From Nannocystis bainbridge (GTDB lineage Bacteria; Myxococcota_A; Polyangia; Nannocystales; Nannocystaceae), in assembly GCF_028368995.1 (NCBI RefSeq), contig NZ_JAQNDL010000002.1, positions 1,120,001-1,184,000 on the forward strand: DNA of 64,000 nucleotides. Direction: 5' to 3'. The stretch's first letter is position 1. The number at the start of each line of letters is the position of its first letter. Shown here in pieces: positions 1,025 to 63,998 of this stretch. The notes beneath the pieces were generated by a model that ran no database searches, was not told where the DNA came from, and was given only the letters and a program-made list of their open reading frames with translations. The position numbers were made by a program, and so were the translations under genes.

Positions 1025-3778
1025 ATGACTGAGCCCGCCGTGAACGCACCGCACACCTCGGCAGACACGCCGGTCATGCGCCAGTTCCTCGACATCAAGC
1101 GTCAGTTCCCTGACGCGATCGTGATGTTCCGGATGGGCGACTTCTACGAGATGTTCTTCGACGACGCGCTCACCGTCGGGCCCGTTCTCGAGATCGCCGT
1201 CACCACCCGCGACAAGGGCGAGGTCGAGAACCCGGTGCCGATGGCGGGCGTGCCGTACCACGCGATCGGCGGCTACCTGCGGACCCTGGTCGAGCGCGGC
1301 TTCAAGGTCGCGATCTGCGAGCAGATGGAGACCCCGGAGCAGGCTCGCCTGCGCAAGGGCCCGAGCAAGATCGTCCGCCGCGAGGTCGTCCGCGTCGTCA
1401 CCCCTGGCGTGCTGGTCGACGAGGAGCACCTGCGCGGCGAGGAACCCAACTACCTGGTCGCGCTGGCCCACGACGCCGCCGGCACCTACGGGCTCGGCGC
1501 GCTCGACATCTCGTGCGGCGAGTTCTTCGTCGTCACCTGCGAGGGCGCCGGCGCGGTGCGGGCCGCGCTGTCGCGCCTGGCGCCGCGCGAGATCGTGTGC
1601 GAGCCGGGGCTGCACCCGTGGCTGGGGCTCGAGCTCGGGCCGCTGTGCCCGCGGCTCGAGGGCCGCGATCCGGCCGCCGTCGGCGCCGCCCAGCTGGCCC
1701 GCGTCAAGCGCCTGCGCGAGGAGAGCGGCGGCGAGGCGCTGGCGCCGGTCGAGGCGCAGGCCGCCGCGCTCGCGCTGGCCTACGCCGAGGACACCCAGCC
1801 GGGCCAGACCTTGCTGCTGCATCGACTGCGGCGCCAGGCCTTCGAGGCCCACCTCGTGCTCGACGACGCCTCGCTGCGCAACCTCGAGGTGTTCCGCACG
1901 CTGCGCGACGGCCAGCGCAAGGGCAGCCTGCTGTGGGCCGTCGACGCCACCCGCACCGCCATGGGCGCGCGCCTGCTGCGGGCCTGGCTCGGCGCCCCTC
2001 TGCGCGCGCTCGGGGCCATCCGCGAGCGCCACGACGCCATCGAGGCCCTGCTCGCCGAGCCGCGCGTGCGCGGCGACCTGCAGGACCGCCTCAAGGACGT
2101 CCGCGACATCGCCCGCCTGGCCGCGCGCGCCCGCCTCGGCACCGTCAGCCCGCGCGAGCTGGCGGCCCTGCGCCAGTCGCTGGCGGCGTTGCCCGGGGTC
2201 GCCGCGCTGCTGCAGGAGCTGGCCCGCCGGCGCATCCCGCTGCTCACCGAAGGACAGGTCCCCGAGGACATGTCCGAGGGGACATGCGCCAAGAGCCAGG
2301 CCGAAGCCGCCCGCCTGCCGGTCCTGCTCGACCTCGGCGAGGACCTGCTGCAGGACGTCCACGCCGCGCTGGTCCGCCTGCTGGTCGACGAGCCGCCGGC
2401 CCACCAGCGCGACGGCGGCATGATCCGCGCCGGCGCCGACCCGGAGCTCGATCGCCAGCTCGGCCTGCGCGACGGCGGCCGCGAGGCGCTGGCGGCCATC
2501 GAGGCCCGCGAGCGCGAGCGCACCGGCATCGCCAACCTCCGCGTCCAGCACAACCGCGTGTTCGGCTACTACATCGAGGTCCTCAAGACCCAGCTGTCGC
2601 GCGTGCCGGCCGAGTACGTGCGCAAGCAGACCACCGCCAACGCCGAGCGCTACGTGACCGCCGAGCTGGCCGAGCACGAGACCGCGGTGCTCGGCGCCGT
2701 CGCGGCCGCGCTCGAGCGCGAGCAGCAGCTGTTCACCGCGCTGCGCGAGCAGGTCTCGGCGGCCGGCGATCGCCTATTGGCCGCCGCCGAGGGGCTGGCG
2801 CGGCTCGACGTGCTGGCCGGGCTGGCGGAGATCGCCGAGGACCACGCGTATGTCCGTCCGGACATGGTCGAAGAGCCAGTCCTCGACATCGAGGAGGGCC
2901 GCCACCCGGTCGTCGAGCGCATGCTCGACGCCGGCCGGTTCGTGCCCAACAACCTGGCCCTGCGCGCCTCGACCACCGCGAACACCGGGGCAGGGCGGCT
3001 GATGCTGCTGACCGGCCCCAACATGGGCGGCAAGAGCACGGCGATGCGCATGGCGGCGCTGGTGGCGATCCTCGCCCACGCCGGCGCCTTCGTGCCGGCG
3101 GTGCGGGCCCGCGTCGGCGTCGTCGACCGCGTGTTCACCCGCGTCGGCGCCGCCGACGACCTCGGCCGCGGCGAGTCGACCTTCATGGTCGAGATGCGCG
3201 AGGCCGCCCAGATCTTGAGCCAGGCGACCCCGCGCAGCCTGGTCCTGCTCGACGAGATCGGCCGCGGCACCGCGACCTACGACGGCCTCGCGCTGGCGTG
3301 GGCGATCACCGAATTCCTCCACGACCAGATCGGCTGCCGCGCGCTGTTCGCCACCCACTACCACGAGCTCACGCAGCTGCAGGCGCGCCTGGTCGGGCTG
3401 CGCAACGCCCACGTCACCGTGCACGAGGAGCGCGGCAGCATCGTGTTCCTGCACCGCGTCGAGGCCGGGCCGGCCGAGCGCAGCTACGGCATCCAGGTCG
3501 GCCGTCTCGCCGGCCTGCCGGCGTCGGTGCTGCGGCGGGCGCAGAAGCTGCTCACGCGCCTGGAGCAGGCCCAGGGCGAGGCGCGGCCGCTGCCGCAGCT
3601 CGACCTGTTCGCGGCCCCGACGCCGCCGCCGCAGGTCGTCGACGCCGCTCCGCCGGCCCTGGCCGCGATCCTGGCCGATCTGCGGGCTCTCCACCCCGAC
3701 GAGCTGAGCCCGCGCCACGCGCACGAGGCCCTGCGTCGGCTCCACGAGCGCCTGGTCGCGGTCGAAGGCGGCAGCTGA
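1025..3778 (+). CDS. mutS: DNA mismatch repair protein MutS
   Basis: TPVMRQF, FRMGDFYEMFFDDA, TGPNMGGKST Walker A, STFMVEM, DEIGRGT, LFATHYHEL, SYGIQV. Confidence 0.97.
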   Translation: MTEPAVNAPHTSADTPVMRQFLDIKRQFPDAIVMFRMGDFYEMFFDDALTVGPVLEIAVTTRDKGEVENPVPMAGVPYHAIGGYLRTLVERGFKVAICEQMETPEQARLRKGPSKIVRREVVRVVTPGVLVDEEHLRGEEPNYLVALAHDAAGTYGLGALDISCGEFFVVTCEGAGAVRAALSRLAPREIVCEPGLHPWLGLELGPLCPRLEGRDPAAVGAAQLARVKRLREESGGEALAPVEAQAAALALAYAEDTQPGQTLLLHRLRRQAFEAHLVLDDASLRNLEVFRTLRDGQRKGSLLWAVDATRTAMGARLLRAWLGAPLRALGAIRERHDAIEALLAEPRVRGDLQDRLKDVRDIARLAARARLGTVSPRELAALRQSLAALPGVAALLQELARRRIPLLTEGQVPEDMSEGTCAKSQAEAARLPVLLDLGEDLLQDVHAALVRLLVDEPPAHQRDGGMIRAGADPELDRQLGLRDGGREALAAIEARERERTGIANLRVQHNRVFGYYIEVLKTQLSRVPAEYVRKQTTANAERYVTAELAEHETAVLGAVAAALEREQQLFTALREQVSAAGDRLLAAAEGLARLDVLAGLAEIAEDHAYVRPDMVEEPVLDIEEGRHPVVERMLDAGRFVPNNLALRASTTANTGAGRLMLLTGPNMGGKSTAMRMAALVAILAHAGAFVPAVRARVGVVDRVFTRVGAADDLGRGESTFMVEMREAAQILSQATPRSLVLLDEIGRGTATYDGLALAWAITEFLHDQIGCRALFATHYHELTQLQARLVGLRNAHVTVHEERGSIVFLHRVEAGPAERSYGIQVGRLAGLPASVLRRAQKLLTRLEQAQGEARPLPQLDLFAAPTPPPQVVDAAPPALAAILADLRALHPDELSPRHAHEALRRLHERLVAVEGGS
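2243..2298. repeat. 4-unit array of the 14-bp TGTCC-N4-GGACA palindrome inside mutS
   Basis: ctcac-cgaa-ggaca / ggtcc-ccga-ggaca / tgtcc-gagg-ggaca / tgcgc-caag-agcca in 14-bp phase. Confidence 0.8.
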
Positions 3779-3961
3779 GTGCCTGTCCTTCGGGCCATGT
3801 CATGTCGTGAGGCGGCGAGGCGCACAGGTCCGCGGCCCTGCACTCCAGCGGCTCCAGGCAGCTGTCGCGGTTCCGGGGCGCGGCCTGAGCGTGCGGGTTC
3901 GCAAGCGTCACCCGCATCCGAGGACTCAACGCGCGCGCCCGTCCGCGGCAAGCTCGCCTTC

Positions 3962-4939
3962 ATGCCTCTCGTGCGCCTCCGCCTGAGCGTGCTCGCCCTC
4001 GCGGCGACCTCGCTCGCCTGTCCCGCGCTGGTCCCCGACGCCCAGGACAGCGACGACGGCGGGGCCTCCGACAGCTCGTCCTCGGAGCCGGCGCCGCCCG
4101 ACCTGCCGCCGCCGGGCCCGCAGGACGTCGTCGTCGCCACCTTCAACGTGCACCGCTTCTTCGACACGAAGTGCGACAGCGCCACGTGCGGCAACGGGGC
4201 CTACGAAGAGGTCTACTCGCAGGCCGAGTTCACCTACCGCGCCGACCAACTCGCCGACGCCATCGACGAGATGCAGGCCGACATCGTGATGCTGCAAGAG
4301 GTCGAGAGTCAGGCCTGCATCGACGCGCTGGTCGATCGCCTGCCGCAGTTCGAGACCGCGTTCATCGGCGAGACCGGCTTCGTCGCGTCGATCGACACCG
4401 CGATCCTCTCGCGCCTGCCGCTCATCGAGATCCGCAGCCACGGCAAGGCCCCGATCCCGCTGCCCGGCGGCGGCTCGACCCACTTCGCCCGCGACTACCT
4501 CGAGGCCCACCTCGACGCCGGCGGCCGGCGCCTGATCGCCTTTGTCGCCCACTTCAAGTCGAAGAACGACGACGACCCCGATCGCCGCCTGGCCGAGGCG
4601 AACGCCGCCCGCGACCTCATCGACCTCGCCGCCGACAACTACCCCGACGCGCTCGTGCTCATGGGCGGCGATCTCAACGACGTGCCCCAGTCGGAGCCGC
4701 TGCAGGCGATCGAGGCCGGCGGCGGCACCGTGCGCGTCGCCGAGGAGCTCGGCGACGACGACTGGACGTACGTCTACGACGGCGACACGCGCGCCATCGA
4801 CCACCTCTACCTGTCGACCCGCAGCGGCGGCGGCAGCTTCGTCAAGGGCAGCGCCCGCGTCCTCCGCGGCGCCGGCACCGACGGCTGGGGCGGCTCGGAC
4901 CACGCGGCCGTGCGCGGCACCTTCCGCGTCGGTGGCTGA
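3962..4939 (+). CDS. Endonuclease/exonuclease/phosphatase (EEP) family lipoprotein
   Basis: Lipobox-like SLAC, VATFNV, LQEVE, AHFKS, GGDLND, IDH, SDH motifs. Confidence 0.85.
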   Translation: MPLVRLRLSVLALAATSLACPALVPDAQDSDDGGASDSSSSEPAPPDLPPPGPQDVVVATFNVHRFFDTKCDSATCGNGAYEEVYSQAEFTYRADQLADAIDEMQADIVMLQEVESQACIDALVDRLPQFETAFIGETGFVASIDTAILSRLPLIEIRSHGKAPIPLPGGGSTHFARDYLEAHLDAGGRRLIAFVAHFKSKNDDDPDRRLAEANAARDLIDLAADNYPDALVLMGGDLNDVPQSEPLQAIEAGGGTVRVAEELGDDDWTYVYDGDTRAIDHLYLSTRSGGGSFVKGSARVLRGAGTDGWGGSDHAAVRGTFRVGG

Positions 4940-4948
4940 CGGCCGCGG

Positions 4949-5008
4949 CGCTTCCATCGCCCCGCGTCGCTTCCATCGCCCCGCGTCGCTCCGAGCGCCC
5001 CGCGTCGC
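4949..5008. repeat. 19-bp intergenic tandem repeat (about 3 copies)
   Basis: cgcttccatcgccccgcgt x2 plus degenerate cgctccgagcgccccgcgt. Confidence 0.8.
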
Positions 5009-5064
5009 AGGCGGACCCCACGGCGCCGGCGCGCGGCTGTGATACCGTGAGTCCGAGTCTCGGC

Positions 5065-6735
5065 ATGCGCTCCTCGCCGCTCTTCCCGCTGCTCGCCGCG
5101 CTCGCGCTGCCGGTCGCGTGCGCGCGCGAGGAGTTCGCGCCGGAGCGATCGGTCGTGTGCGAGGGCGCGGTCGAGGTCCCCGATCCGGCCCTGCGCGCGC
5201 TGCTCCTCGACATCCTCGACGATCCCGAGGCGAACGACAGCACCACCGGCGAGCCCGTCCTCACGGCCGCGTCGCTGGCCACGCTCACCGGGCTACAGGC
5301 CGCCGAGCGCGGGATCGTCGACCTGCAGGGCCTCGAGTGCGCCGTCAACCTCCGCACCCTCGGCCTCGCGCGCAACGAGATCGTCGACATCCGCCCGCTC
5401 ACCTGGTTGGGCGAGCTGCGGGAGGTCGAGCTGTCGGAGAACCCGATCGCCGGCCACGACCCGCTGGCGCGCCTCGTCAAGCTCGAGAAGCTCGTGCTCG
5501 GCGGCGCCGGCGTGAAGTCGATCGCCTTTGTCGCCGGCATGACCGCGCTGCGCCACCTCGACGTCGCCCGCGGCGAGGTCGGCGACATCGGCCCGCTCGC
5601 CGGCCTCGGCCGGATCGAGTCGCTCGTCCTCTCCGACAATCAGATCGCGGACATCGGCCCGCTCGCCGGCCTGCACGAGTTGTTCGCGCTCTCGCTCGAC
5701 GGCAACGCGATCGCCGACATCGGTCCGCTCGCTGCGCTGGCGCGGCTCGAGTACCTCGACATCGACGAGAACGCGATCGACTCGCTGGCCCCGCTGGCCG
5801 GCCTCACCCGCATGCGCCGGATCGAGGCCAACGCCAACGCGATCACCGACACCCGCGGCCTCGCCGGCAAGCCCGACCTCGTCGAGCTCGGGCTCGAGAA
5901 GAACCAGATCGCCGCGCTCGCCGATCTCAGCGGACTCACCGGCCTCGTCACCCTCGACCTCGACGAGAACCTGCTCACCAGCCTCGATGGCCTCGAGGTC
6001 CTGGTGGAGCTGCGCAACCTGACCGCCCGGATCAACGCCATCGCCGACATCAGCGCCGTCGTCGGGCTCACCGACCTGCGGCGCCTCGACCTGCGCGACA
6101 ACCCCGGCCTCGTCGACCTCACGCCGGTCGCGGGCTTGCAGTACCTCGACTACCTCGGCCTCGGCGGGCAGGGCGTCGCCCCCGACCTCGCGCCGCTGAC
6201 CGGCCTCCCGCTGCTGCGCCAGCTCGACGTCATCGACGGCGCCACCACCGAGTACGGCGTGCTCACCAGCTTGCCCGCGCTCCGGGTCCTGCGGCTGCTC
6301 AACGCCCCGCTCGACGTCGCCGACCTCGAGGCCATCGCCGGCGCCACCGCGCTCACCACCCTCGACATCTCCGGCGCGCCGGTGACCGACCTCGGCCCGC
6401 TCGCGCCGCTCACCGGCCTCGTCGACTTCTCCGCCAGCGGCACCCGGATCAACGCCCTGGGCCCCGTCACCGACTGGCTCGAGCTCGATTTCCTCCGCGT
6501 CGCCCGCACCCCGCTGAAGAGCCTCGCCGGCGTCGAGACCGTGCTCGGCGTCGACCAGATCGACATCAGCGACACTGAGGTCGACGACATCTCGCTGCTG
6601 CTCGGGCTCAAGGCGTTCCGCAAGAACGACCGCCTCGACGCCCGTGGCAGCCGGCTCGACGACGGCGACTGCGACGACATCCGCGCCCTCCGCGAGCGCG
6701 GCGTCAACGTCCTCGCCGACCCGACGTGCGAGTGA
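5065..6735 (+). CDS. Leucine-rich-repeat (internalin-like) lipoprotein
   Basis: Signal peptide ending PVAC, cap DPALRA...DLQGLE, many 22-aa LxxLxLxxNxIxDIxPL repeats. Confidence 0.9.
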   Translation: MRSSPLFPLLAALALPVACAREEFAPERSVVCEGAVEVPDPALRALLLDILDDPEANDSTTGEPVLTAASLATLTGLQAAERGIVDLQGLECAVNLRTLGLARNEIVDIRPLTWLGELREVELSENPIAGHDPLARLVKLEKLVLGGAGVKSIAFVAGMTALRHLDVARGEVGDIGPLAGLGRIESLVLSDNQIADIGPLAGLHELFALSLDGNAIADIGPLAALARLEYLDIDENAIDSLAPLAGLTRMRRIEANANAITDTRGLAGKPDLVELGLEKNQIAALADLSGLTGLVTLDLDENLLTSLDGLEVLVELRNLTARINAIADISAVVGLTDLRRLDLRDNPGLVDLTPVAGLQYLDYLGLGGQGVAPDLAPLTGLPLLRQLDVIDGATTEYGVLTSLPALRVLRLLNAPLDVADLEAIAGATALTTLDISGAPVTDLGPLAPLTGLVDFSASGTRINALGPVTDWLELDFLRVARTPLKSLAGVETVLGVDQIDISDTEVDDISLLLGLKAFRKNDRLDARGSRLDDGDCDDIRALRERGVNVLADPTCE

Positions 6736-6768
6736 GCGCGCGCGGTGCCTGCCTCGAAGACGGCCTGG

Positions 6769-7007
6769 AGCGAGGTCGGCACGACCGTCATCGACGCGGA
6801 CCAAACCCGCCGGCACGAGGCGAGCAGCCGGCGTGCTCGTGATCAGCGCCGAAGCACCTGCGGCACGACGCGAGCTGAAGACGCGCTCTTAGCGAGGTCG
6901 GTCAGCCGTGATCAGCGCCGAAGAACCTGCCGATCCGACGGGGGCCGAAGCCGCGCCAGCGAGACCGGCCAGACCGTGATCGTCGCCGTCGAACCCGCCG
7001 CCGCGAC
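6769..7007. repeat. Degenerate ~50-70-bp period repeat upstream of xerC
   Basis: cgtgatcagcgccgaagNacctgc at 6838 and 6907, with related units at 6786 and 6975. Confidence 0.6.
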
Positions 7008-7048
7008 GCAAATTTCGTGACCCGGCGGGCCCGCGCTACACCTCGGGC

Positions 7049-8044
7049 ATGCGCGACGCCGTCGAGCGCTTCCTCGAGCACCTGCGGGACGAGCGGCGGC
7101 TCTCGCCGCACACCCTCCGCGCCTACCGCGGCGACCTCCTCGATTTCCTCGACCGCTTCGAGGCTCGCCGCGGGCGCCCGGCCGAGCTCGCCGACCTGGG
7201 CGTGCGCGAGGTCCGGGCCGACCTCGCCGAGCGCTTCAGCGAGCAGGCCGCAAGCACCTCCGCGCGCAAGCTCTCCACCTTGCGCAGCTTCGCCGAGTTC
7301 CTGCGCAGGCGCGGCGAGCTGCCCGACAACGAGGCCGCGCTGGTGCGTCGGCCCAAGCTGCCGCAGCGCCTGCCGGTCGCTCTCCCGGTCGAGGATCTCA
7401 CCGACATGATCGATGGTCCTGGCCACGCCGACGGCGTGCTCGGCCTGCGCGACCGCGCGATCCTCGAGATCCTCTACGGCGCCGGCCTGCGCGTCGGCGA
7501 GTGCGTCGCCCTCGACCTCGAGCACCTGCGCTGGGACAGCGACGCGCTGACCCTGCGGGTCGTCGGTGGCAAGGGCAACAAGGACCGCGAGGTCCCGCTC
7601 GGGGCGCCTGGCGCCGCCGCGGTGCGGGCCTGGCTCGGCGTCCGCGAGAAGATGCTGCCGCCGGGTCAGCCCCTGTCCGAGAGCACAGGTTCGAAGCGCG
7701 GCGCCGCCAGGGGCGAGCGGGCGCTGTTCCTCGGCCGCCGCGGCCAGCGGCTCGGCGATCGCAGCGTGCGGGCCCTCGTCTACCGCCGCTGCGAGGCCAC
7801 CGGCGCGCGCGCCCGGGTCGGCCCGCACGGCCTGCGCCACAGCTTCGCCACCCACCTGCTCGAGGGCGGCTGCGACCTGCGCAGCATCCAGGCCATGCTC
7901 GGCCACGCCAGCCTCAGCACCACCCAGCGCTACACCCACCTCGACCTCGGCCGGATCGTCGACGTCTACGAGCGCGCCCACCCGCGCGCCCGGGCGGCCG
8001 CCCCCGCGCAGCCGGCCGAAGCCCGTCCGCGCCGGCGCGCCTGA
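7049..8044 (+). CDS. xerC: Tyrosine recombinase XerC
   Basis: ERRLSPHTLRAY N-terminus; catalytic GLRVGE, GKGNK, HGLRHSFATHLLEGG, LGHASLSTTQRYTH. Confidence 0.9.
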   Translation: MRDAVERFLEHLRDERRLSPHTLRAYRGDLLDFLDRFEARRGRPAELADLGVREVRADLAERFSEQAASTSARKLSTLRSFAEFLRRRGELPDNEAALVRRPKLPQRLPVALPVEDLTDMIDGPGHADGVLGLRDRAILEILYGAGLRVGECVALDLEHLRWDSDALTLRVVGGKGNKDREVPLGAPGAAAVRAWLGVREKMLPPGQPLSESTGSKRGAARGERALFLGRRGQRLGDRSVRALVYRRCEATGARARVGPHGLRHSFATHLLEGGCDLRSIQAMLGHASLSTTQRYTHLDLGRIVDVYERAHPRARAAAPAQPAEARPRRRA

Positions 8045-8166
8045 GCGGCCGCGCGGGGTGCAGGGCGCTGCGTGGGCGCGAACGAGGCGAGCGAGCGGAG
8101 CAGGGCGCTGCGTGGGGCGCGACCGAGGCGAGCGCAGCAAGGCGCGCCGCCGCGTACTCTACAAAA

Positions 8167-8250
8167 TGTCCTCGAAGACATGCTCATGAGGGCATGTCCT
8201 CACGAGCATGTTCGATCGTTCATGTCCTTTCGAGCATGCTCTTTCAGGCA
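8167..8250. repeat. 6-unit array of the 14-bp palindrome, between xerC and the M23 peptidase gene
   Basis: tgtcc-tcga-agaca, tgctc-atga-gggca, tgtcc-tcac-gagca, tgttc-gatc-gttca, tgtcc-tttc-gagca, tgctc-tttc-aggca in exact 14-bp phase. Confidence 0.9.
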
Positions 8251-8278
8251 CGCCCCGGCGCCCGCCGCCAGTCGCGCC

Positions 8279-9391
8279 TCACAGCGTCGCGTCGAGCAGC
8301 ACCTCGGCCGTGCCGCGCTGCTTGCGTTCGATGCGGTCGGTCGCGGTGCGGCGCACGCGGTCGTTGCGGACCGGCATCTCGCGCTCGTACCAGGCCCCGT
8401 CGATGTACACGTCCACGAACGGCGCGGGCAGCCCGAGCTCGCCCTGCGGCGAAGTCGTCTTGGTGGCCACGTGGAAGTGGATGTGCGGCCCGCTGCTGTG
8501 GCCCGAGTTGCCGACCTTGCCGAGCTCCTGGCCGAGCTCGACCTTGTCGCCGACCTTCACCTTCACCGTGCCCGGGATCATGTGCCACAGCGACGACGCC
8601 TCGCCGAAGCCGTGGTCGATCACCACCCCGTTGCCGCCGCCCTCGCCGGTCGCCCCGGGGCCGTTCTCGGCCACGTCGTTGACGGCGCGCATCACCGTCC
8701 CGGCGGCCGGCGCCAGCACCGGGTAGCCGTAGCAGTACGAGGCCTTGTTGCCGCTGCCGCCGACCGGCTTGCTGCGCCCGCCCTTCATCACGACCATGTC
8801 GTAGGCGAACCGCTGGCCGCGGTGATTGTGGTGGTAGTTCGTCATGCGCCGCGGGCCGCCGTGCACGACGGTCCACTCGCCGGTGCTCACGAAATGCAGC
8901 CGCGTCACCGTCGAGTAGCGGCGCGCCGGGCCGGCGATCTGCTCGAACGCCAGGTGCTCGCGGACCAGCAGGCGGTCGAGCGCGCGGTCGGGCGTGACGG
9001 CGAACTGGAACAGCACCAGCCGCACCTTGCGATCGGGCGCGCCGGCCTTGCCGCGGGCGTAGACCACCAGCCCCGAGTACCAGGTCAGGTCGCCCTCCTT
9101 GTGGACCTTCTCTTCGAGGATGCCGATCGGCTGGCCGTAGCGGGTGCGCAGGCGTTCACCGGTCGCCGCCAGCTCGGGCGGGCGGACCACCGTCTTGAGG
9201 CTGGGAGACATCCACGCGTGCAGCTCCGACACGCGGCCGAGGAGCAGCCCGTTGATCAGGCGATCCGCCTCCGGCATCAGCTCGGAGGTCGGCTTCAGCG
9301 ACGCCTGGTTGGGGGCGCGCAAGTCCTTGGGCTTGCAGCCGAGCCCGGCGGCCAGCGACAGCGCGACGACGAGGACCCGCAGCGGGTGCAT
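8279..9391 (-). CDS. M23 family metallopeptidase lipoprotein
   Basis: GLGC lipobox; VLAPAAGTV, GNGVVIDHG, GKVGNSGHSSGPHIHF (HxH). Confidence 0.9.
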   Translation of the reverse strand: MHPLRVLVVALSLAAGLGCKPKDLRAPNQASLKPTSELMPEADRLINGLLLGRVSELHAWMSPSLKTVVRPPELAATGERLRTRYGQPIGILEEKVHKEGDLTWYSGLVVYARGKAGAPDRKVRLVLFQFAVTPDRALDRLLVREHLAFEQIAGPARRYSTVTRLHFVSTGEWTVVHGGPRRMTNYHHNHRGQRFAYDMVVMKGGRSKPVGGSGNKASYCYGYPVLAPAAGTVMRAVNDVAENGPGATGEGGGNGVVIDHGFGEASSLWHMIPGTVKVKVGDKVELGQELGKVGNSGHSSGPHIHFHVATKTTSPQGELGLPAPFVDVYIDGAWYEREMPVRNDRVRRTATDRIERKQRGTAEVLLDATL

Positions 9392-9568
9392 GCCGGCGCC
9401 ATCCTAGCCGTTCTCTCGCATCCTTCACCGGGGCGTCCGCGCGCGCACGCCGACTCGCGCGCGCACGCGGGAGCGGCGTGGGGTCCGCGGATCGGGCGCG
9501 ATTTCGTGACGATCTTCACCTTGTTCGGCGCGCGGACGCGAGCGTCCGGGGGTACGCTCGTTTTCGCC

Positions 9569-10084
9569 ATGCGCCCCGCCACCGTCGTCGCCTCGCCGCT
9601 CGATGGCCCGTACAGCCCCGCGCTGCTCGGTCTTTCGGCCGCCACGTCGTCGCCGTGGAGCGCCGGCGAACCGGTCGCCCGGTGGCTCGCCGCGTGTCGC
9701 TGCGTCGCCGGGCGCTGGAGCGTGCGGCTCGAGCTGCGCGGCTCCCCGCGCGTCAGCGACGATCTCGACCTCGCGCGCGACGAGCAGGACCGCTTGCTCG
9801 GATTGTGGGGGCAGGGCGACCAGATCGGCCACTTCGAGCGGCTGGGCCTCGCCCCGACCGGCGACGACGCCGCGATCCGCCGCGCCTGGCTCGAGACCTG
9901 TCGTCAGCTGCACCCGGACCGTTACTACGGCAAACGGCTCGGGGCGTTCGCGGCGATCCTCGCCGAGCTCTTCGATCGCGCGCGAGCCTCTGCCGAGCTC
10001 CTCGGCGACCCGCGGCGTCGGGCCCGCTACCTGGCGGAGCTCGAAGCTGTTGTGCGCGACGAGGCCGACACCAAAGCGCTCTGA
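9569..10084 (+). CDS. J-domain-containing protein (start uncertain)
   Basis: HFERLGL...IRRAW...LHPDRY...LGDPRRRARY J-domain with HPD; directly upstream of an Hsp70 gene. Confidence 0.75.
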   Translation: MRPATVVASPLDGPYSPALLGLSAATSSPWSAGEPVARWLAACRCVAGRWSVRLELRGSPRVSDDLDLARDEQDRLLGLWGQGDQIGHFERLGLAPTGDDAAIRRAWLETCRQLHPDRYYGKRLGAFAAILAELFDRARASAELLGDPRRRARYLAELEAVVRDEADTKAL

Positions 10085-10155
10085 CCATGTGTTTCTACAC
10101 ACGATTTTTTGCGCGGCAGCTCACGCCCCGAGCGTGGTAGGTCTGCGACCTCGTC

Positions 10156-11997
<1,842 letters not shown>

Positions 11998-12022
11998 AGC
12001 GAAGCGCGTCGCCGCGCGCAGT

Positions 12023-12290
12023 GCAGCATGCGCAAGAGCGGCGAGTCGCCGATGGCGCAGCGCCGACGCAGCATGTGCCGACACAGCCTATGCAGATGAG
12101 CGGCGCGCAGCATGATGGTGCCCGAGCGGCGTCGAAGCAGGATGTGCGTACGAGCGGCGTAGAGTCGATGCGCAGCATGTTCGTGCCCGAGCGACGCTTG
12201 GCTGATGCGAAGCGATTCCTTGTCAGCGACGCCCCGCGCTGACGTGCAGCATGTTCGTGCACGAGTGTTGCCGATGCACGCAGCGTGATG
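12023..12290. repeat. Degenerate GCAGCATG-centred intergenic repeat
   Basis: GCAG(C/G)ATG at 12023, 12068, 12107, 12137, 12172, 12246; gcagcatgttcgtgcNcgag occurs twice. Confidence 0.6.
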
Positions 12291-52727: not shown

Positions 52728-53667
52728 CGTCGTCGCCTTGCGGGCGGGTGCGGGCGGCCTTGCGCTCGCGTTTGACCCGCTTCGCCTCGACCTGCTGGAT
52801 CCGCTTGTTGCGCTGCTTCTCGGTCGGTGGGCGGCCGGGCAGCGGGGGCTGGTCGACGTGGTGCTCCTCGAAGCTCCCGGGCGCCGCGCCGAGCTCGAAG
52901 ATCGTGACCTCGCGGCGGGCCCGTTCGCCGAGGCGCAGCGGGACGACGGCCGCGCCGATGCCTGCGCCGACGTACACCGCGCCGCGCGGGCGCTCGTCGA
53001 TCCGCGAGCCGTAGAGGCCGTGGACGTATTTGTGGCCGATGAGGCGGCCGAGCGCGAGCTCGTTGAGGCGAGCGAGCGTGACCTGTCCGGCGTGGGTGTG
53101 CCCGGACAGCACCAGCTGCACGCCGGTGGTCCACAGGTGATCGGCCTCCTCGGCGATGTGCGACAGGCCGAGGGTCGGGAGGTCGTGGCGCAGGCCCCGG
53201 GTGGCGCGCTCGACGTCGGCGTGGCCGGTGTAAGCGTCGTCGAGGCCGACGACCTGCAGCGCCTGGCCGCGCAGGGTGATCGTGGTGTGGATGTTGTCGA
53301 GGACCTCGGCGCCGGCGCGGCGCAGGGCGGCGCGCACCTCGGGGCCGCCCGACCAGTGATCGTGGTTGCCGAGCACCGCCATCACCGGGGCCTGGTAGCC
53401 GCGGATGAGCTCCCCGAGCTGGTCGAGGAACGCCTGGCTGTGGCACACGAAATCGCCGGTGATGCACACGAGGTCGGGCCGCTCGGCGTTGACGAGGTCG
53501 ACCGCGGCGCGCTGGACCTTCATCGGCGTGATCCGGCCGACGTGGATGTCGGTGACGTGGGCGACGCGGAGCGGGCTGGCGAGCTGGGCCACGTACGAGG
53601 CCGGACCGGCGAACCGGCGCACCTCGATCTGCGCGCTGGTGTCAAACCATGCCAGCGGGTTCAGCAT
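52717..53667 (-). CDS. Metallophosphoesterase (YkuE-like)
   Basis: TDIHVG, TGDFV, GNHD, LSH, SGHTHAGQ motifs. Confidence 0.9.
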   Translation of the reverse strand: MLNPLAWFDTSAQIEVRRFAGPASYVAQLASPLRVAHVTDIHVGRITPMKVQRAAVDLVNAERPDLVCITGDFVCHSQAFLDQLGELIRGYQAPVMAVLGNHDHWSGGPEVRAALRRAGAEVLDNIHTTITLRGQALQVVGLDDAYTGHADVERATRGLRHDLPTLGLSHIAEEADHLWTTGVQLVLSGHTHAGQVTLARLNELALGRLIGHKYVHGLYGSRIDERPRGAVYVGAGIGAAVVPLRLGERARREVTIFELGAAPGSFEEHHVDQPPLPGRPPTEKQRNKRIQQVEAKRVKRERKAARTRPQGDDDER

Positions 53668-60372: not shown

Positions 60373-61119
60373 CTACGGTCCGCGCGCGACCAGCAGGCCG
60401 TCGGCGACCAGGCCGGCCAGCAGCTCGTCGGCCTCGTGCGGCTCGGCGCCCAGGCGCACCGCCTCGGCCGTCAGCTCGGCGCGCGGGCGGCCGTCGCCAG
60501 CGAATTGAAGCAAGCGGACGAGCGGTTCGCTGGCTGTCCCGAGAGACACCTCGCCGCCGGGGCCGGCCTCGACCAGCAGCGGCTCGCGGTCGGGCCCGCG
60601 GGGCGGCTTCTCGCGTGCGGAGCGGGCGGTCGCCAGGGTCGTCGCGGGGTCGGGCCCGAGGCGGGCGCGCATGCGCTCGAGGCAGGCGAGGCTGCCTTTC
60701 GGGACCCGCAGCGGGGCCACGCATGGGTTGCACGCCAGGCCCTCGCCGGCGCCGGGGCGCGGGCGGCGGGCGTGGGCGATCGCCGCTTCGATCCGGCCTG
60801 GGCCACCGGCCTGTCCTCCGAGCCATGTCCCGAAGGACATGGCCATCGAACCATGTTCGAACACGCAGGTGCGGAACGCCGCCGACGAGAAGAACGCGTC
60901 GACCGCCGGCACGCCGAGCAGCGCCGCCGTGGCCGGGTACTCCTCGAGCAGGGCGTGCACGGCCCGGGCGCGGCGGTACGGATCGACGGTCAGGGCCCGG
61001 GGGTCGACGGCGCGCAGCAGCGACCGCTCGCGCTCGGCCAGCTCGGGCAGCGGCCCGGCGCCGCGCACCGCCGCGGCGTAGGCGGGGTCGAGGTGCATGC
61101 AGACGAGCGCGGCCTGCAC
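60373..61119 (-). CDS. Hypothetical protein, probable MNIO partner (DUF2063-like position; start uncertain)
   Basis: Immediately downstream of DUF692; LLEEYPATAALLG...FF pattern; C-terminal winged-helix-like ELLAGLVADGLL. Confidence 0.55.
   Translation of the reverse strand: MQAALVCMHLDPAYAAAVRGAGPLPELAERERSLLRAVDPRALTVDPYRRARAVHALLEEYPATAALLGVPAVDAFFSSAAFRTCVFEHGSMAMSFGTWLGGQAGGPGRIEAAIAHARRPRPGAGEGLACNPCVAPLRVPKGSLACLERMRARLGPDPATTLATARSAREKPPRGPDREPLLVEAGPGGEVSLGTASEPLVRLLQFAGDGRPRAELTAEAVRLGAEPHEADELLAGLVADGLLVARGP
60812..60867. repeat. 4-unit 14-bp array within the MNIO-partner gene
   Basis: tgtcc-tccg-agcca, tgtcc-cgaa-ggaca, tggcc-atcg-aacca, tgttc-gaac-acgca. Confidence 0.8.
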
Positions 61120-61139: not shown

Positions 61140-62021
61140 TCAGGCGGCCTCCGGGCCGCGCGCGGGCCACAGCGCGGCCACGCGGTCGAACAGCGGCAGC
61201 ACGGCGTCGATCGGGTTGCGCTCGCACTCGACGACGATCGAGCGCAGGTTGACCGCGCGCCGGGCCGCCTCGTTGGCGATGTCCCAGGTGTCCGGGAGGA
61301 CCTCCGTGCCGTGATCGTCCTCGACCCACGCGAGCCCGGCGGTGTCGTGGACGCGACCGCCGGCGACGTGCAGCTCGACCACGCGGTCCCACGGGAACCC
61401 GTCGAAGCCGGTCCGCGGGGCGTGGCCGCGGGCCCGCTGGAACATGGCCAGGTGGGCGCAGTCGAGCAGCAGCCCGGTGTCGGCGCGCTCGGCGACGCGG
61501 GCGAAGAAGTCGAGCAGGTGCATGTCGCCGACGAACGCGGCGCCCGGCGGGTTCTCGGGCAGCACCTCGAGGCCGGTCGCCTCGCGCAGCGCCTGCAGGC
61601 CGTCAGCCAGCGGCCCGATCGCCTCCTCGACGAGGATCGGCGGCAGCAGCAGCATGTGCCCGCGGTCGCGGCGGCCGAGGTGCCACAGCCCGGCGTCGCC
61701 GCACAGCCACGCCGGCCGCAGCTCGCCGGCGATCGTGCGCACGGCGGCCAGCCACTCGGGGTCGAAGTCTTCGGGCTCGTCGAGGTTGATGTCGAGGAAG
61801 TGGTAGGTGGTGGGCAGGCCGGCGGCGGCCCACGCCCGCGCGTCGTCGTCGAGGCCCTTGACGACCTCGACGCCGACCTCGAGGAAGCCGGCGCAGTCGG
61901 GCCGGCGCCGCCGCAGCTCGAGCGGGTCGAGCGCGCCGTCCTGGCGCCGCGCGCCGTACTCGGTGCTGACGCCGAGGCCGAGGCGCGGCAGGGCGCGGAC
62001 GCGGTCGAGGAAGTCGGGCAT
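61140..62021 (-). CDS. DUF692 family multinuclear non-heme iron oxidase (MNIO)
   Basis: LGLG N-terminus, LPENPP, GLLLDCAHL, VVELHVAGG, DDHG, VVECE. Confidence 0.85.
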   Translation of the reverse strand: MPDFLDRVRALPRLGLGVSTEYGARRQDGALDPLELRRRRPDCAGFLEVGVEVVKGLDDDARAWAAAGLPTTYHFLDINLDEPEDFDPEWLAAVRTIAGELRPAWLCGDAGLWHLGRRDRGHMLLLPPILVEEAIGPLADGLQALREATGLEVLPENPPGAAFVGDMHLLDFFARVAERADTGLLLDCAHLAMFQRARGHAPRTGFDGFPWDRVVELHVAGGRVHDTAGLAWVEDDHGTEVLPDTWDIANEAARRAVNLRSIVVECERNPIDAVLPLFDRVAALWPARGPEAA

Positions 62022-62099
62022 TCGGGACAGGTCCGTGAGAACATGTCCGATCGGGCAGGTCCTCAAGGACATGCCCGTTCGGACATGGCAGATCGGTCA
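62016..62099. repeat. 6-unit 14-bp array filling the GST-DUF692 spacer
   Basis: gggca-ttcg-ggaca, ggtcc-gtga-gaaca, tgtcc-gatc-gggca, ggtcc-tcaa-ggaca, tgccc-gttc-ggaca, tggca-gatc-ggtca. Confidence 0.9.
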
Positions 62100-62720
62100 G
62101 CCGGCTTCGACCGCGCGGTTGGCCGGGCGGCTGACGCAGCGCTCGATCCACGCGCCGACGGCCGGGTAGGCGGCGATGTCGGTCTTGATGAAGCTCAGGG
62201 CCCAGGCGAGCGCCGCGGCGTTCGCGGCGTCGACGAGGGTGAAGCCGCTGCCGACCAGGTACTCGCGGCCCTGCAGGCGCTGGTCGAGGACCTTGAGCGC
62301 GGCCTCGAACTCCTTGGTGGCGGCCTCGGCCTGGAGGGCGTTGCGCGAGTCGGCGGGGAACCACTCGCTGGTGTTGAAGAAGATGCGGAAGATGGTGCCG
62401 CCGAGGGTGACCGAGCCCCACACGCTCCACGACAGCGCCTCGGCGTACTCGCTGGAGCCGACGCGCGGCCACAGGCCCTTGTCGACGCCGAAGCGGTCGC
62501 CGAGGTAGAGGATGATCGCCAGCGACTCGAACAACGGGGTGCCGTCGACGACCAGCGCGGGCACCTTGCCGTTGGGGTTGATGGCCAGGAATTCGGGCTT
62601 GTGCTGGTCGCCGGCGCGGAGGTCCAGCTTGACCTTGTCGTAAGGGACGCCGAGCTCCTCGAGGACCCAGTGGACGCGTGAGGCGCTCGTGTGGGGGGTG
62701 TAATAGAACGTGATCGACAT
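62097..62720 (-). CDS. Glutathione S-transferase family protein
   Basis: LEELG..Y, INPNGKVPAL, LFESLAI, YLVG..FTLVD. Confidence 0.92.
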   Translation of the reverse strand: MSITFYYTPHTSASRVHWVLEELGVPYDKVKLDLRAGDQHKPEFLAINPNGKVPALVVDGTPLFESLAIILYLGDRFGVDKGLWPRVGSSEYAEALSWSVWGSVTLGGTIFRIFFNTSEWFPADSRNALQAEAATKEFEAALKVLDQRLQGREYLVGSGFTLVDAANAAALAWALSFIKTDIAAYPAVGAWIERCVSRPANRAVEAG

Positions 62721-62795
62721 GGGGCCTGGTCTCCGCGGGTTATGTACGCGATCGGGCGGCGCAGGGGTAGGCGAGCGCAGCGGTCGGGGCTCGGG

Positions 62796-63998
62796 TCAGG
62801 TGGGGATGCAGTGGACCAGCAGCCACTGGTTGCTGGTGCCGGGGCCGATCTCGCGGCGCTCGAGCGCTTCGAGGCGCAGGTCGAGCGCGGCGGCGGCGGC
62901 CTCGATCCGCCGGACGGCCGCGGCCGCGTCGTCGTTGCGGTAGTGCTCGCGGCGGGCGCTCGAGCGCTCGCCGCGGGTGGTCTGCGCCGGCGTGCGAGCC
63001 AGGCCGAACGCTGTGTTGTCGCAGACGACGAGCACGCCGCCGGGCCGCAGTCGCGACAGGGCCGTGACGAGCACGCGATCGGGGTCGCGCAGGTGGTTGT
63101 AGCTGCGCAGGATCGTGACGGCGTCGAAGCGGCGTTCGCCGAGCTCGAGCGCCTCGGCGTCGCCGCGCTCGAGCGTCGCGCCGGGCGGCAGGCGGGCGCG
63201 CAGGCGGGTCAGCGCGGCCTCGTCGGGGTCGACGCCGGTGTAGCGGATCCCGCCGGCGGCGATCCGCGGGGCCAGGACCTCGAGGTAGGGCGCGTCGCCG
63301 CAGCCGAGGTCGAGGACGTCGCCGACGAGCGCGGCGAGGCGGGCGCGCACGGCCGCGTCGTCGCGGGTAAAGATGTCCTCGAAGACAGGTTCGAACATCC
63401 CCGTGCACGCGGAGAAGTGCGGGCAGCCGGCGCACAGCGGGCTGCGGGTCAGCGGCACCAGCTCGCGGGCGAAGTCCTGCGGCGCCGGACCGCGGGCGGC
63501 GTCGACGTAGACCTGGCCGAGGTCGTGCTTGACCGCGGCGATCTCCTCGTCGGTGAAGTCGCGGGTGTCGGCGCGGTAGCGGGCGATCGCGGCGCCGCGG
63601 CGGACGAACAGGTGACGGCCGCGCTCCCACGGGGTGACGCCGAGCGGCCCCTGTCGCAAGGGACAGGTGCCCTCGGCGGCCTCGTGCACCGCCTCGAGCG
63701 TGTAGTTGAAGGAGTTGGCGCGCGGGCGATCGGTGACCGGGCGCAGCTCGCCGGCGCCGTGGACCTCGTGGTAGCCGCGGTAGAGCCCGGGGCAGCCGCC
63801 GCGCAGGCTGCAGCCGTCGCAGGCCGGCGGGTGGCGCTTGTTGTCGTCGTCGACCGGGAACAGGTCGGGCTCGCCGATCTCGACCATGGTCCAGTAGCGG
63901 TGGCTGCGGAGGTCGCTGTAGCTGTCCTCGAGGCCAGGTACGAGGCAGCGTGGGATGCCGCCGTGCTGGACCCGGACGCCGCGCTCGCGGGCGTGCGC
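62796..63998 (-). CDS. C-terminal part of a probable radical-SAM protein fused to a class I methyltransferase (5' end outside the window)
   Basis: Frame open to the edge: GIPRCL...CDGCSLRGGCPG, a second CAGCPHFSACTG, then VLDLGCGD...LRPGG; the CxxxCxxC core is not in the window. Confidence 0.6.
   Translation of the reverse strand, partial: AHARERGVRVQHGGIPRCLVPGLEDSYSDLRSHRYWTMVEIGEPDLFPVDDDNKRHPPACDGCSLRGGCPGLYRGYHEVHGAGELRPVTDRPRANSFNYTLEAVHEAAEGTCPLRQGPLGVTPWERGRHLFVRRGAAIARYRADTRDFTDEEIAAVKHDLGQVYVDAARGPAPQDFARELVPLTRSPLCAGCPHFSACTGMFEPVFEDIFTRDDAAVRARLAALVGDVLDLGCGDAPYLEVLAPRIAAGGIRYTGVDPDEAALTRLRARLPPGATLERGDAEALELGERRFDAVTILRSYNHLRDPDRVLVTALSRLRPGGVLVVCDNTAFGLARTPAQTTRGERSSARREHYRNDDAAAAVRRIEAAAAALDLRLEALERREIGPGTSNQWLLVHCIPT

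Follow-up and report, generated by a model that had tools for sequence, protein, structure and literature searches.

A strongly enriched, dyad-symmetric DNA word of a Nannocystis-like genus, arrayed in phase within and behind genes

A 14-bp palindrome, TGTCC-N4-GGACA, recurs in genes and spacers throughout a 64,000-nucleotide stretch of the Nannocystis bainbridge genome (the window), which raises the question of what reads such a word and how it is used. The original prediction, made from the window, took it for a site of an abundant nucleoid-organising protein rather than a pathway operator. We find that the palindrome is the core of a ~20-bp dyad-symmetric DNA word, R-S-M-TGTCC-Y-N-N-R-GGACA-K-S-Y, and our results support its being a genome-wide word rather than an operator of one pathway. 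A literature search turned up no description of TGTCC-N4-GGACA, in agreement with the claim that the motif is undescribed, and no Rfam family accounts for the palindrome.

Abundance and arrangement of the word

The nine perfect copies reported in the window (2271, 2851, 12424, 27079, 30395, 38645, 45933, 46276 and 60826) were each confirmed at that coordinate, while 100 dinucleotide shuffles gave 0.02 on average and never more than 1. The 21 near-copies that had been picked out by eye are likewise all real; 15 match nine of the ten core bases and six (13063, 24586, 31703, 40554, 55927 and 62030) match eight. The complete tally is 9 sites with 10/10 core bases, 24 with 9/10 and 35 with 8/10. 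The GC content, judged by eye as ~72%, is 0.69–0.74 along the window.

The enrichment extends to the whole 11-Mb genome, survived every null tried and is far larger than first noted. There are 1,987 perfect sites where 9.5 are expected (~200-fold) and 4,258 sites with a 9/10 match where 330 are expected, giving 6,245 sites with at least nine core bases; 29 other palindromes, made by permuting the half-sites, have only 1–83 copies each. Based on a maximal-order Markov model, no 8-mers of the genome are more over-represented than TGTCCCGA and TCGGGACA. Predicted coding sequences hold 717 perfect sites, compared to a mean of 21.3 (range 15–31) when synonymous codons are shuffled within genes (10 shuffles), a 34-fold excess. 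The gene coordinates were predicted from codon usage with a crude finder (7,819 genes, 81% coding), and the context classes used below are therefore approximate. Among related genomes, strong enrichment is confined to one Nannocystis-like genus.

About 10,000 units, grouped into 5,331 arrays, make up 1.3% of the genome. The 14-bp phase of abutting copies noted in the window is real, strict and genome-wide: TGTCC-to-GGACA offsets peak only at 9, 23, 37, 51 and 65 and at −5, −19, −33 and −47, and arrays reach up to 11 units. The phase is strict because each site's flank (CA|TG) is at the same time the start of its neighbour.

Each of the 109 bins of 100 kb contains units (10–108 per bin), and arrays are clustered along the genome, not regularly spaced (CV 1.48). 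Their density runs inverse to functional constraint and is highest behind genes, with 1.37 sites per kb in convergent spacers, 0.59 in tandem spacers, 0.18 in divergent spacers and 0.08 in coding sequence. Among spacers of 51–400 bp, 58–68% of the convergent but 0–16% of the divergent ones carry units, and in tandem spacers 134 of 672 units begin within 25 nt of the stop codon. About 36% of perfect units are intragenic; these 717 are evenly distributed along genes and divide into 405, 251 and 61 among the three reading frames. Units are scarcer in low-GC regions. This gradient with constraint and the low-GC depletion fit a function-free drive equally well.

The sites bound by Noc (NBS), SlmA (SBS) and MatP (matS) number in the tens and have macrodomain-specific placement. 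They resemble the Nannocystis word as dispersed 12–16 bp palindromes, many of them intragenic, but here about 6,000–10,000 units are spread over all bins, strong enrichment is confined to one genus, and there is a 3′ bias and selection for hairpins. The proposed analogy to these systems fails on these grounds; we rejected a site of this kind since density tracks inverse constraint and units in 3′ spacers are additionally selected as hairpins.

Symmetric recognition and hairpins in 3′ spacers

In the flanks of perfect units, and likewise in degenerate neighbours in phase with them, Watson-Crick pairing between the arms is at or below the independence expectation, and half-sites decay independently of each other. 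The spacer has Y at position 5 and R at position 8, yet these do not pair (584 observed, 661 expected), and wobble-compatible variants have no consistent advantage over mismatch variants. The logo of 1,880 units oriented by transcription is mirror-symmetric, with TTCG (91) equal to CGAA (90). Isolated perfect units (n = 1,051) keep the flank preference for R at −3, S at −2 and M at −1, with −4 and −5 at background. The independent decay of half-sites and the strand symmetry thus point to a symmetric factor that reads the motif on double-stranded DNA, by sequence and not structure. Some component of the cell probably reads the palindrome, and this part of the original prediction holds up: the features fit a symmetric, probably dimeric, double-stranded-DNA-binding factor, although the sites do not behave like those of Noc, SlmA or MatP and an abundant nucleoid protein is a putative reader.

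Selection for long perfect hairpins is found only in 3′ spacers. We counted stems of at least 10 bp in perfect units and in 8/10 units, each against shuffles: convergent spacers have 75 versus 14.5 and 56 versus 14.4, tandem spacers 20 versus 11.4 and 21 versus 7.1, and divergent spacers 1 versus 1.5 and 1 versus 0.9, respectively. Coding sequence avoids long stems (2 versus 8.6 and 2 versus 5.3). Convergent spacers hold 74% of the 178 long-stem units. The long hairpins have no U-tract (1.6–1.7 T in the 8 nt past the stem, compared to 1.8 for the A control), and canonical terminator-like sites in window positions 1–20000 are not above chance (6 found, 5.1 expected).

The window contains several arrays behind genes. 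Six phased units at 27023–27106 fill the convergent spacer between the stop codons of genes 26158–27015(+) and 27112–27921(−) and fold at −65.3 kcal/mol (z −7.0), with two 10–11 bp stems that include compensated variant units; three congeners also have arrays at this location, which are not alignable to this one. Five phased units (8167–8236) in the convergent spacer between genes 7049–8044(+) and 8279–9391(−) fold at −35.6 kcal/mol (z −3.8) on one strand and −37.1 kcal/mol (z −3.6) on the other, and the six units at 62016–62099, filling the spacer between genes 62097–62720(−) and 61140–62021(−), fold at −42.3 kcal/mol (z −3.9). A five-unit array (52406–52475) between genes 51762–52361(−) and 52717–53667(−) sits immediately behind the 3′ end of the upstream gene, and a single perfect unit (38645–38658) lies 53 nt past the stop of predicted gene 37723–38592(+). 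Downstream of gene 10156–11997(+), the spacer region 12298–12437 holds two two-unit arrays (12298–12325 and 12410–12437); a metagenome contig covering 12280–12624 differs at 4 positions, with no gaps.

Conservation and origin of the units

We examined conservation on 390 kb aligned to one congener, with expected values taken from bases of the same kind at the same codon position. The 38 perfect coding units share 367 of their 380 core bases with the congener (332 expected), and 28 of them have all ten core bases intact (7.9 expected), while the 4-bp spacer is at baseline (136 of 152 identical, 134 expected). Similarly, 14 intergenic units retain 133 of 140 core bases (119 expected) but only 30 of 56 spacer bases (47.6 expected). 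Evolution has thus preserved the core in genes and in intergenic DNA alike and let the 4-bp spacer drift, a pattern compatible with purifying selection or with an ongoing biased-transmission drive, which conservation alone does not separate. Spacers that bear units usually do so in the congener as well (convergent 21/26, tandem 21/32, divergent 5/5), and those free of units are likewise mostly free there (7/10, 91/94 and 38/40, respectively).

In the window, single perfect units at 30395–30408, inside predicted gene 29289–30656(−), and at 45933–45946, inside predicted gene 45605–46822(+), score 10/10 in all three congeners, the former with a flank identity of 86–89%. The same score in 3/3 congeners is found for the two-unit array at 60812–60839 (perfect unit at 60826) inside predicted gene 60373–61119(−). 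A three-unit array at 46248–46289 (perfect unit at 46276), also inside 45605–46822(+), scores 10, 9 and 10 in three congeners. Predicted gene 41266–42873(+) contains a further three-unit array (42372–42413).

The mutS-like gene at 1025–3778(+) has two sites. An array of about three units (2243–2300, called at 2257–2284) encodes ...EGQVPEDMSEGT... in a lineage-specific loop of the protein, 24–32 residues longer than in four other Myxococcota MutS; all five congeners have arrays at this position, which evolve faster than their flanks. A single perfect unit (2851–2864) lies in the conserved segment AYVRPDMV and is identical in 6/6 genomes of the genus. Three other genera of the family have YVRPEV, YVRPEI or YVRPDL there and no motif; the site was therefore made by substitutions, including amino-acid changes. 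Comparison of these sequences at the YVRPDM site indicates that intragenic sites originate by point substitution.

What may read the word

Several explanations other than a DNA-binding protein have to be weighed. One, which we consider unlikely, is an uptake signal for transformation of the DUS/USS type, in which a surface or periplasmic receptor prefers the word and biased uptake with recombination (molecular drive) spreads and keeps copies wherever they are tolerated, those in 3′ spacers being co-opted as hairpins. DUS/USS are described as asymmetric words with a pilin as reader, about half of them in terminators, where inverted repeats form stem-loops, with biased intragenic frames, accumulation in permissive regions and a preference for genome-maintenance genes (10.1101/2025.10.24.684340). 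The distribution of the Nannocystis word matches these published features (10.1101/2025.10.24.684340): both have thousands of lineage-restricted copies in spacers and, in preferred frames (here 405/251/61), in genes, about half of them in 3′-end hairpins, with build-up in permissive regions and conservation between related species. The substitution origin, a restriction to one genus that resembles a ‘dialect’, the depletion in low-GC regions and the two sites in mutS also agree with uptake; ComEC is present, but is uninformative because 27 of 31 relatives have it whatever their motif content. DUS/USS are, however, 9–12-base asymmetric words, single or in inverted pairs, while the word here is a 14–20 bp dyad whose free 4-bp centre is typical of dimeric cytoplasmic DNA binders, and head-to-tail arrays in strict 14-bp phase, up to 11 units long, have no known counterpart among them. 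A purely RNA-level element, a genus-specific family of terminator or 3′-stabiliser hairpins like TRIT or REP, possibly read by a double-stranded-RNA-binding protein and with intragenic copies as by-products, is distinctly unlikely. It would account for units in two thirds of the 51–400 bp convergent spacers, their start near stop codons, the stable folding of arrays (z down to −7.0) and the enrichment of long perfect stems with compensated variants only at 3′ ends. TRIT (Tuberculosis Rho-independent terminator) of Mycobacterium is also a genus-restricted, sequence-conserved, palindromic, bidirectional gene-end motif of a high-GC bacterium, for which the authors proposed a dsRNA-binding factor (PMC3152330). 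But TRIT has 147 copies, compared to about 10,000 units here, forms one longer hairpin around position −8 of the stop codon and is not known to have a selected intragenic population or 14-bp arrays. Moreover, the 717 perfect intragenic units have 5-bp stems too weak for a role at the RNA level, yet core conservation in them is far above the baseline; coding sequence avoids long stems, neither strand asymmetry nor wobble preference relative to transcription is seen, most degenerate units lack compensation and there is no U-tract.

We find it very unlikely that the word is a neutral by-product of sequence-biased repair or gene conversion (very-short-patch-like) that turns near-matches into the word with no reader afterwards, even though the substitution origin, the large halo of 9/10 and 8/10 variants and a density that follows constraint would suit it. 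Such a process would still need an enzyme recognising about 16–20 bp and leaves the confinement of hairpin selection to 3′ spacers unexplained. Such an origin has also been considered for HIP1 (GCGATCGC), a cyanobacterial palindrome that is 15- to 300-fold over-represented and conserved within and between ORFs; the authors of that work take conservation at orthologous sites, the pattern also seen here, as selection rather than replenishment, and a role in nucleoid structure has been proposed (PMC5861425). HIP1 resembles our word in its strong over-representation (here ~200-fold) and conservation, but is a contiguous 8-mer that spans a phylum, with no known phased tandem arrays and no reported gene-3′-end bias. 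A selfish REP/REPIN/MITE-type repeat spreading by transposition is highly improbable. REP/BIME elements, which are known docking sites for proteins (PMC2817692), are also short palindromic units clustering at regular spacing in spacers behind genes, and the Nannocystis units share with mobile repeats their palindromic form, lineage specificity, clustering in 3′ spacers and convergent regions and 1.3% share of the genome. They are, however, smaller and often intragenic (about 36% of perfect units), and a Y1/RAYT transposase was not found (no PF01797 match in the 90% complete genome, while control genomes matched). Array-specific spacers and unconserved flanks mean that a master copy is lacking; identical adjacent pairs are only 26 of 4,716, arrays keep their positions from species to species instead of showing presence/absence polymorphism, and no indels accompanied the origin of sites in conserved protein segments.

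The reading we favour, at a probability of roughly 0.45, is that a genus-specific dimeric DNA-binding protein reads the ~20-bp word and that phased arrays behind genes serve as 3′-end punctuation. The protein itself is putative. A screen of candidate genes yielded no identified binder; the 20 small genes screened for a perfect site within 150 nt upstream include one HTH protein (ArsR-type), with its site 134 bp upstream. In MetJ met-boxes and omega heptads, symmetric short units follow one another directly, with one dimer on each, and the dimers spiral around the DNA; phage stoperators lie dispersed through genes, where they bind repressor and stop transcription. The Nannocystis arrays may work like these systems, in which a replicon has 2–30 sites, found at promoters or on phage genomes; we know of none that is chromosome-wide with thousands of 3′-end sites. 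One symmetric, sequence-specific dimer would occupy each 14-bp unit, with adjacent dimers rotated by about 120 degrees, so that three units would span four helical turns. Arrays behind genes could act as a protein roadblock, or as hairpins stopping or stabilising transcripts from either direction. The palindrome would belong with genome-signature words like DUS/USS or HIP1, and would also be used in the manner of REP/TRIT hairpins at the 3′ ends of genes.

Abundance of the word and anatomy of its arrays

All nine perfect copies of TGTCC-N4-GGACA that the original prediction had placed in the window (2271, 2851, 12424, 27079, 30395, 38645, 45933, 46276 and 60826) are present, compared to a mean of 0.02 in dinucleotide shuffles of the window, and the 21 near-copies it had listed also exist, 15 of them matching nine and six matching eight of the ten fixed core bases. 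The genome (11.05 Mb in five contigs, 71.5% GC, with the window at 1,120,001-1,184,000 of contig C3) contains 1,987 perfect sites where 9.5 are expected; by comparison, 29 other palindromes made from the permuted half-site occur 1-83 times each. Sites that match nine core bases number 4,258 (330 expected), which brings the units with at least nine to 6,245, and sites that match eight number 7,530 (4,982 expected). The most over-represented 8-mers of the genome, relative to a maximal-order Markov model, are TGTCCCGA and TCGGGACA. Predicted coding sequences hold 717 perfect sites, compared to a mean of 21.3 in 10 within-gene synonymous-codon shuffles. Enrichment over chance, on which the original prediction depended, persists against both dinucleotide- and codon-preserving nulls.

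The distance from TGTCC to GGACA peaks across the genome at offsets of 9, 23, 37, 51 and 65 and of -5, -19, -33 and -47, and at no others, and thus units form head-to-tail arrays in strict 14-bp phase; the abutting arrangement noticed in the window holds strictly genome-wide. Calling arrays from seeds of at least nine core bases yielded 5,331 arrays with 10,047 units, which cover 140.7 kb or 1.27% of the genome. Single units account for 3,160 of these arrays, while arrays of 2, 3, 4, 5, 6, 7, 8, 9 and 11 units number 1,058, 467, 174, 252, 156, 44, 14, 4 and 2, respectively. The fall-off with size is uneven, with a bump at five and six units after the dip at four, which hints at a preferred array length of ~70-84 bp.

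The extended logo spans ~20 bp (R-S-M-TGTCC-Y-N-N-R-GGACA-K-S-Y). This preference in the flanks belongs to the site itself: 1,051 isolated perfect units, defined as those whose in-phase neighbours are unlike the unit, retain it, with positions -4 and -5 at background. Because the flanking CA|TG doubles as the start of the next unit, phased arrays can grow by accretion. The PadR-type site, ATGT-N8-ACAT, overlaps the extended consensus, but the likeness is weak, as position -1 is C in 63% of isolated units.

In a sample of 45 of the 472 arrays with at least five units, the spacers and flanks all differ, which rules out a MITE with a master copy. Adjacent units are identical in only 26 of 4,716 pairs, and therefore slippage contributes a minor part of the arrays at most; adjacent pairs with identical spacers number 134, compared to 74 expected. 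Since spacers are array-specific, flanks are not conserved and identical pairs are few, the arrays are not copies of a master element.

Placement, origin and conservation of units

We assigned units to genes with a codon-usage gene finder of our own, which predicts 7,819 genes on 81% of the genome; it is crude and its calls are approximate, but its errors would be expected to weaken differences between contexts, not to produce them. By this assignment, 1,255 perfect units are intergenic, 717 are coding and 15 lie across a boundary, while intergenic DNA makes up 19% of the genome. The density of perfect units is 1.37 per kb in convergent spacers, 0.59 in tandem spacers, 0.18 in divergent spacers and 0.08 in coding sequence; tolerance of the word is inversely proportional to constraint. 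Units in tandem spacers lie a median of 86 nt from the upstream stop codon but 229 nt from the downstream start, and 134 of the 672 are within 25 nt of the stop codon. Among spacers of 51-400 bp, at least one unit with at least nine core bases is found in 58-68% of convergent, 14-36% of tandem and 0-16% of divergent spacers. This order is the reverse of that expected for an operator, in line with the original prediction that the word is not a pathway-specific one, and the occupancy of two thirds of convergent spacers in this size range is new.

Coding units are distributed evenly along genes and are biased among the three frames, with 405 units as xxT GTC CNN NNG GAC Axx, 251 as xTG TCC NNN NGG ACA and 61 as TGT CCN NNN GGA CAx. 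On the scale of the chromosome, the 109 bins (100 kb each) contain between 10 and 108 units with at least nine core bases, and unit density in the GC-skew switch region on contig C3 is not distinct from that in other bins. The distances between neighbouring arrays are clustered (CV 1.48). Thus, neither macrodomain placement nor regular spacing is seen in the bins or in the inter-array distances. Sites of the Noc/SlmA/MatP type number in the tens and either keep to a single region of the chromosome or avoid one. The analogy to these systems that had been proposed does not hold, because both the numbers (6,245 units) and the placement (every bin occupied) put the word outside this class.

GC content is 0.66-0.71, compared to 0.715 overall, in the bins with the fewest units and in four of the five longest gaps that we examined; this low GC, together with the paucity of recognisable genes in one such stretch, suggests younger DNA. 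Word-poor stretches with a GC content of 0.66-0.70 include C1:1,100,000-1,300,000, where the gene finder recognises few genes, C2:741,520-785,870 and C2:2,192,315-2,224,832; the gaps reach 44 kb, and some of them contain genes of 2,400-5,700 residues. Such stretches may be islands of recent acquisition or else large biosynthetic clusters.

Three congeners are collinear with the window, at ~88-94% nucleotide identity, and its coding units recur at orthologous positions in all three. We measured conservation in 390 kb aligned to one congener, G001, with baselines matched by codon position and base. The 38 perfect coding units in this alignment share 367 of 380 core bases with G001, compared to 332 expected, and 28 of them have the whole ten-base core intact, compared to 7.9 expected, while the spacers of these units are at baseline (136 of 152 identical versus 134 expected). 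Similarly, in 88 coding units with nine core bases, 831 of 880 core bases are identical, compared to 773 expected. In the 14 intergenic perfect units that can be aligned, identity is 133 of 140 in the core (119 expected) but 30 of 56 in the spacer (47.6 expected); the core of 45 intergenic units with nine core bases is at baseline (388 of 450 versus 384.5 expected). Intergenic arrays are mostly unalignable between species, yet they are kept in position, as exemplified at 27015-27112. Where a spacer bears a unit, its G001 counterpart also bears one in 21 of 26 convergent, 21 of 32 tandem and 5 of 5 divergent cases; where a spacer is free of units, its counterpart is free as well in 7 of 10, 91 of 94 and 38 of 40 cases, respectively. 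The word is held at individual sites by selection or transmission drive.

The word is created by substitution, as is seen in mutS, where the intragenic units were verified by translation and alignment. The perfect unit at 2851 encodes part of the conserved MutS segment AYVRPDMV and is invariant across six genomes of the genus, while three other genera of the family have YVRPEV, YVRPEI or YVRPDL in this segment and lack the site. Thus, the site was made by amino-acid-changing substitutions and with a rare TAT codon. The array at 2243-2300, within the same mutS-like gene (1025-3778), is translated as …EGQVPEDMSEGT…, in a loop that exceeds its counterpart in other Myxococcota MutS proteins by 24-32 residues; the array is found in all congeners and evolves faster than its flanks with the 14-bp pattern retained. 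Three-unit arrays (42 bp, 14 codons) occur inside predicted genes 131 times in the genome, and the repeat may therefore generate protein insertions more generally.

Among named relatives of the window MutS, the best match is a record from an 'uncultured Nannocystis sp.', with 88% identity over the N-terminal third. The mutS orthologue of a second congener, G007 (G007:C2:3,109,431-3,112,174), gives two overlapping matches (residues 3-225 and 212-917), which suggests a frameshift or an assembly error. In public sequencing data, parts of the window are matched only by contigs from soil and other metagenomes, with no RNA from pure culture among the runs; one contig spans 12280-12624 without gaps. 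The genes at 10156-11997 and 35509-37449 are paralogues with ~73% nucleotide identity (10495-11696 versus 35839-37046); the former has very high contig depth in soil metagenomes and is thus probably a highly conserved housekeeping gene.

The word is largely a property of the genus. All ten other Nannocystis genomes are strongly enriched, with 114-2,090 sites compared to 1-6 for a reversed-pattern control. In two other genera of the family, enrichment is weak but clear (G011, 87 sites versus 10 in the control; G013, 161 versus 1), and this could represent a system at an early stage or in decay. Site counts drop to 3-5 in each of six further genera of the family and to 0-7 in 12 other families of the class, and the maximum among 300 further genomes of the phylum (~209 genera) is 18. 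We found no other hyper-abundant palindrome in G013 in a scan of 150 kb of its 8.6-Mb genome, with a maximum z of 5.7 compared to 37 in an equal amount of the N. bainbridge genome.

Probable recognition as DNA and selection as a hairpin

The word is sequence-defined and dyad-symmetric. Complementarity between the arms is at the level of two consensus halves that decay independently, both in the flanks of perfect units and in degenerate in-phase neighbours, and spacer positions 5 and 8, which are Y and R, are unpaired (584 Watson-Crick pairs versus 661 expected). Orienting 1,880 tandem-spacer units by transcription gives a mirror-symmetric logo; the loop TTCG (91) and its complement CGAA (90) are found in similar numbers, and variants that keep a G-U wobble show no consistent preference over C-A mismatch variants. 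Because the arms do not covary, the logo is mirror-symmetric and wobble pairs are not preferred, we favour recognition of the word as double-stranded DNA, by a putative symmetric reader.

Selection also acts on the word as a hairpin behind genes, while long hairpins are avoided inside genes. We counted units whose arms lie in a perfect stem of at least 10 bp, and compared these counts to shuffles made for each context; in units with eight core bases, such a stem requires that both mismatches be compensated. In convergent spacers, long stems are formed by 75 perfect units (14.5 in shuffles) and 56 units with eight core bases (14.4), and in tandem spacers by 20 (11.4) and 21 (7.1), respectively. 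The corresponding counts are 1 (1.5) and 1 (0.9) in divergent spacers, and 2 (8.6) and 2 (5.3) in coding sequence. Thus, selection for the hairpin is limited to 3' spacers, and use of the word as a hairpin is limited to positions behind genes. Indeed, 74% of the 178 long-stem units are in convergent spacers and 2% are coding; compensated variants among them include TGTTC/GAACA, TGCCC/GGGCA and TGACC/GGTCA. This dual signature, with sequence-level constraint everywhere and hairpin-level constraint at 3' ends only, is new.

Arrays in the window fold with energies of -30 to -65 kcal/mol and z-scores of -2.1 to -7.0. The long stems are not followed by a U-tract, as the next 8 nt hold 1.6-1.7 T, compared to 1.8 A as a control and 1.2 as background, and canonical terminator-like sites are not in excess over chance in positions 1-20000 of the window. 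The hairpins are present without a U-tract, and the word is therefore not a canonical intrinsic terminator. In the window, no Rfam 15 family matches the word at the gathering threshold; the sole match is a tRNA gene at 51397-51468 on the + strand.

Comparison with known systems and possible readings

We found no description of the word in the literature searched, exclusive of supplementary files, consistent with the original prediction that the motif is undescribed. The main text of the RepRanger paper (PMC12306157) has no mention of Myxococc-, Nannocystis or RAYT. The word resembles REP/BIME elements in that palindromic units are clustered behind genes. It falls outside this class because there is no RAYT (PF01797, the Y1 transposase, has no match in the N. 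bainbridge genome, which is 90.5% complete, compared to matches in 6 of 14 control genomes) and because REP/BIME elements are strictly extragenic, whereas 717 of the 1,987 perfect units are in predicted coding sequences. The word is over-represented more than 15-fold, with sites conserved within and between ORFs, as for HIP1, and it agrees with the descriptive criteria for HIP1-type iterated palindromes (PMC5861425). According to PMC3152330, TRIT elements are likewise palindromic, bidirectional, genus-restricted and concentrated at gene ends, but their sequence is unrelated and the word has ~40-70 times more copies, which makes this an analogy and not homology. We class the word as a lineage-specific hyper-abundant genome word, of which the strict 14-bp phased arrays are a new feature.

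A perfect unit lies within 150 nt upstream of 252 genes, 76 of which encode at most 260 residues. We screened 20 of these 76 against Pfam for an autoregulated reader (14 from divergent spacers and 6 with long upstream gaps), and none was found among the 20; the one DNA-binding protein among them, an HTH protein of ArsR type (C2:1,651,110-1,651,442, 110 aa, in a divergent spacer), has its site 134 bp upstream, and we do not count it as a candidate. ComEC is present in N. bainbridge and in 27 of 31 relatives irrespective of their word content, and thus it is not a correlate of the word.

We infer, with a probability of roughly 0.45, that the word is recognised by a putative symmetric, genus-specific DNA-binding factor, one dimer of which would occupy each 14-bp unit, and that arrays behind genes would serve as 3'-end punctuation. 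It is doubtful, though conceivable, that an abundant dimeric protein polymerises on the phased arrays and on single intragenic sites as a genus-specific punctuation of the chromosome; the arrays behind most transcription units would then act as a protein-based bidirectional terminator, insulator or supercoiling barrier. If true, this would be a previously unknown sequence-coded marking of gene ends in bacteria, unlike intrinsic or Rho-dependent termination.

The main rival, which we consider unlikely, is an uptake signal of the DUS/USS type that is kept by molecular drive. Like DUS/USS, the word is lineage-specific and hyper-abundant in both genes and spacers, with a frame bias and an enrichment in 3' hairpins, and the published distribution criteria for DUS/USS (bioRxiv 10.1101/2025.10.24.684340) agree with it almost point for point. 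However, DUS/USS is an asymmetric word read by a pilin receptor, such that DNA bearing it is preferred for uptake, whereas the Nannocystis word is dyad-symmetric, and both this symmetry and the phased arrays are without known precedent among uptake signals. A TRIT- or REP-type hairpin family that works at the RNA level alone would fit the long stems behind genes but is quite unlikely, given the conserved single units inside genes and the strand symmetry. A repair bias that has no function is improbable, and a transposing repeat, which the differing spacers and flanks of the arrays argue against, is very improbable.

Few genomes have hyper-abundant words like DUS/USS, HIP1 or REP, and each of these words opened up a field of biology, whether uptake specificity, nucleoid structure or the control of mRNA and topology. 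The word described here is unusually tractable, as it is long, specific, measurably constrained, restricted to one culturable myxobacterial genus and present in two thirds of convergent 51-400-bp spacers. In practical terms, the arrays make up 1.3% of the genome, add translated loops to proteins such as MutS and provide a ready signature of Nannocystis DNA in metagenomes. Should the word prove to be an uptake signal, it would be the first palindromic one known and the first outside the two classical families. If its reader is a DNA-binding protein, gene ends would be marked in a novel manner in a genome of high GC in which the 20 kb scanned have no excess of canonical terminators.
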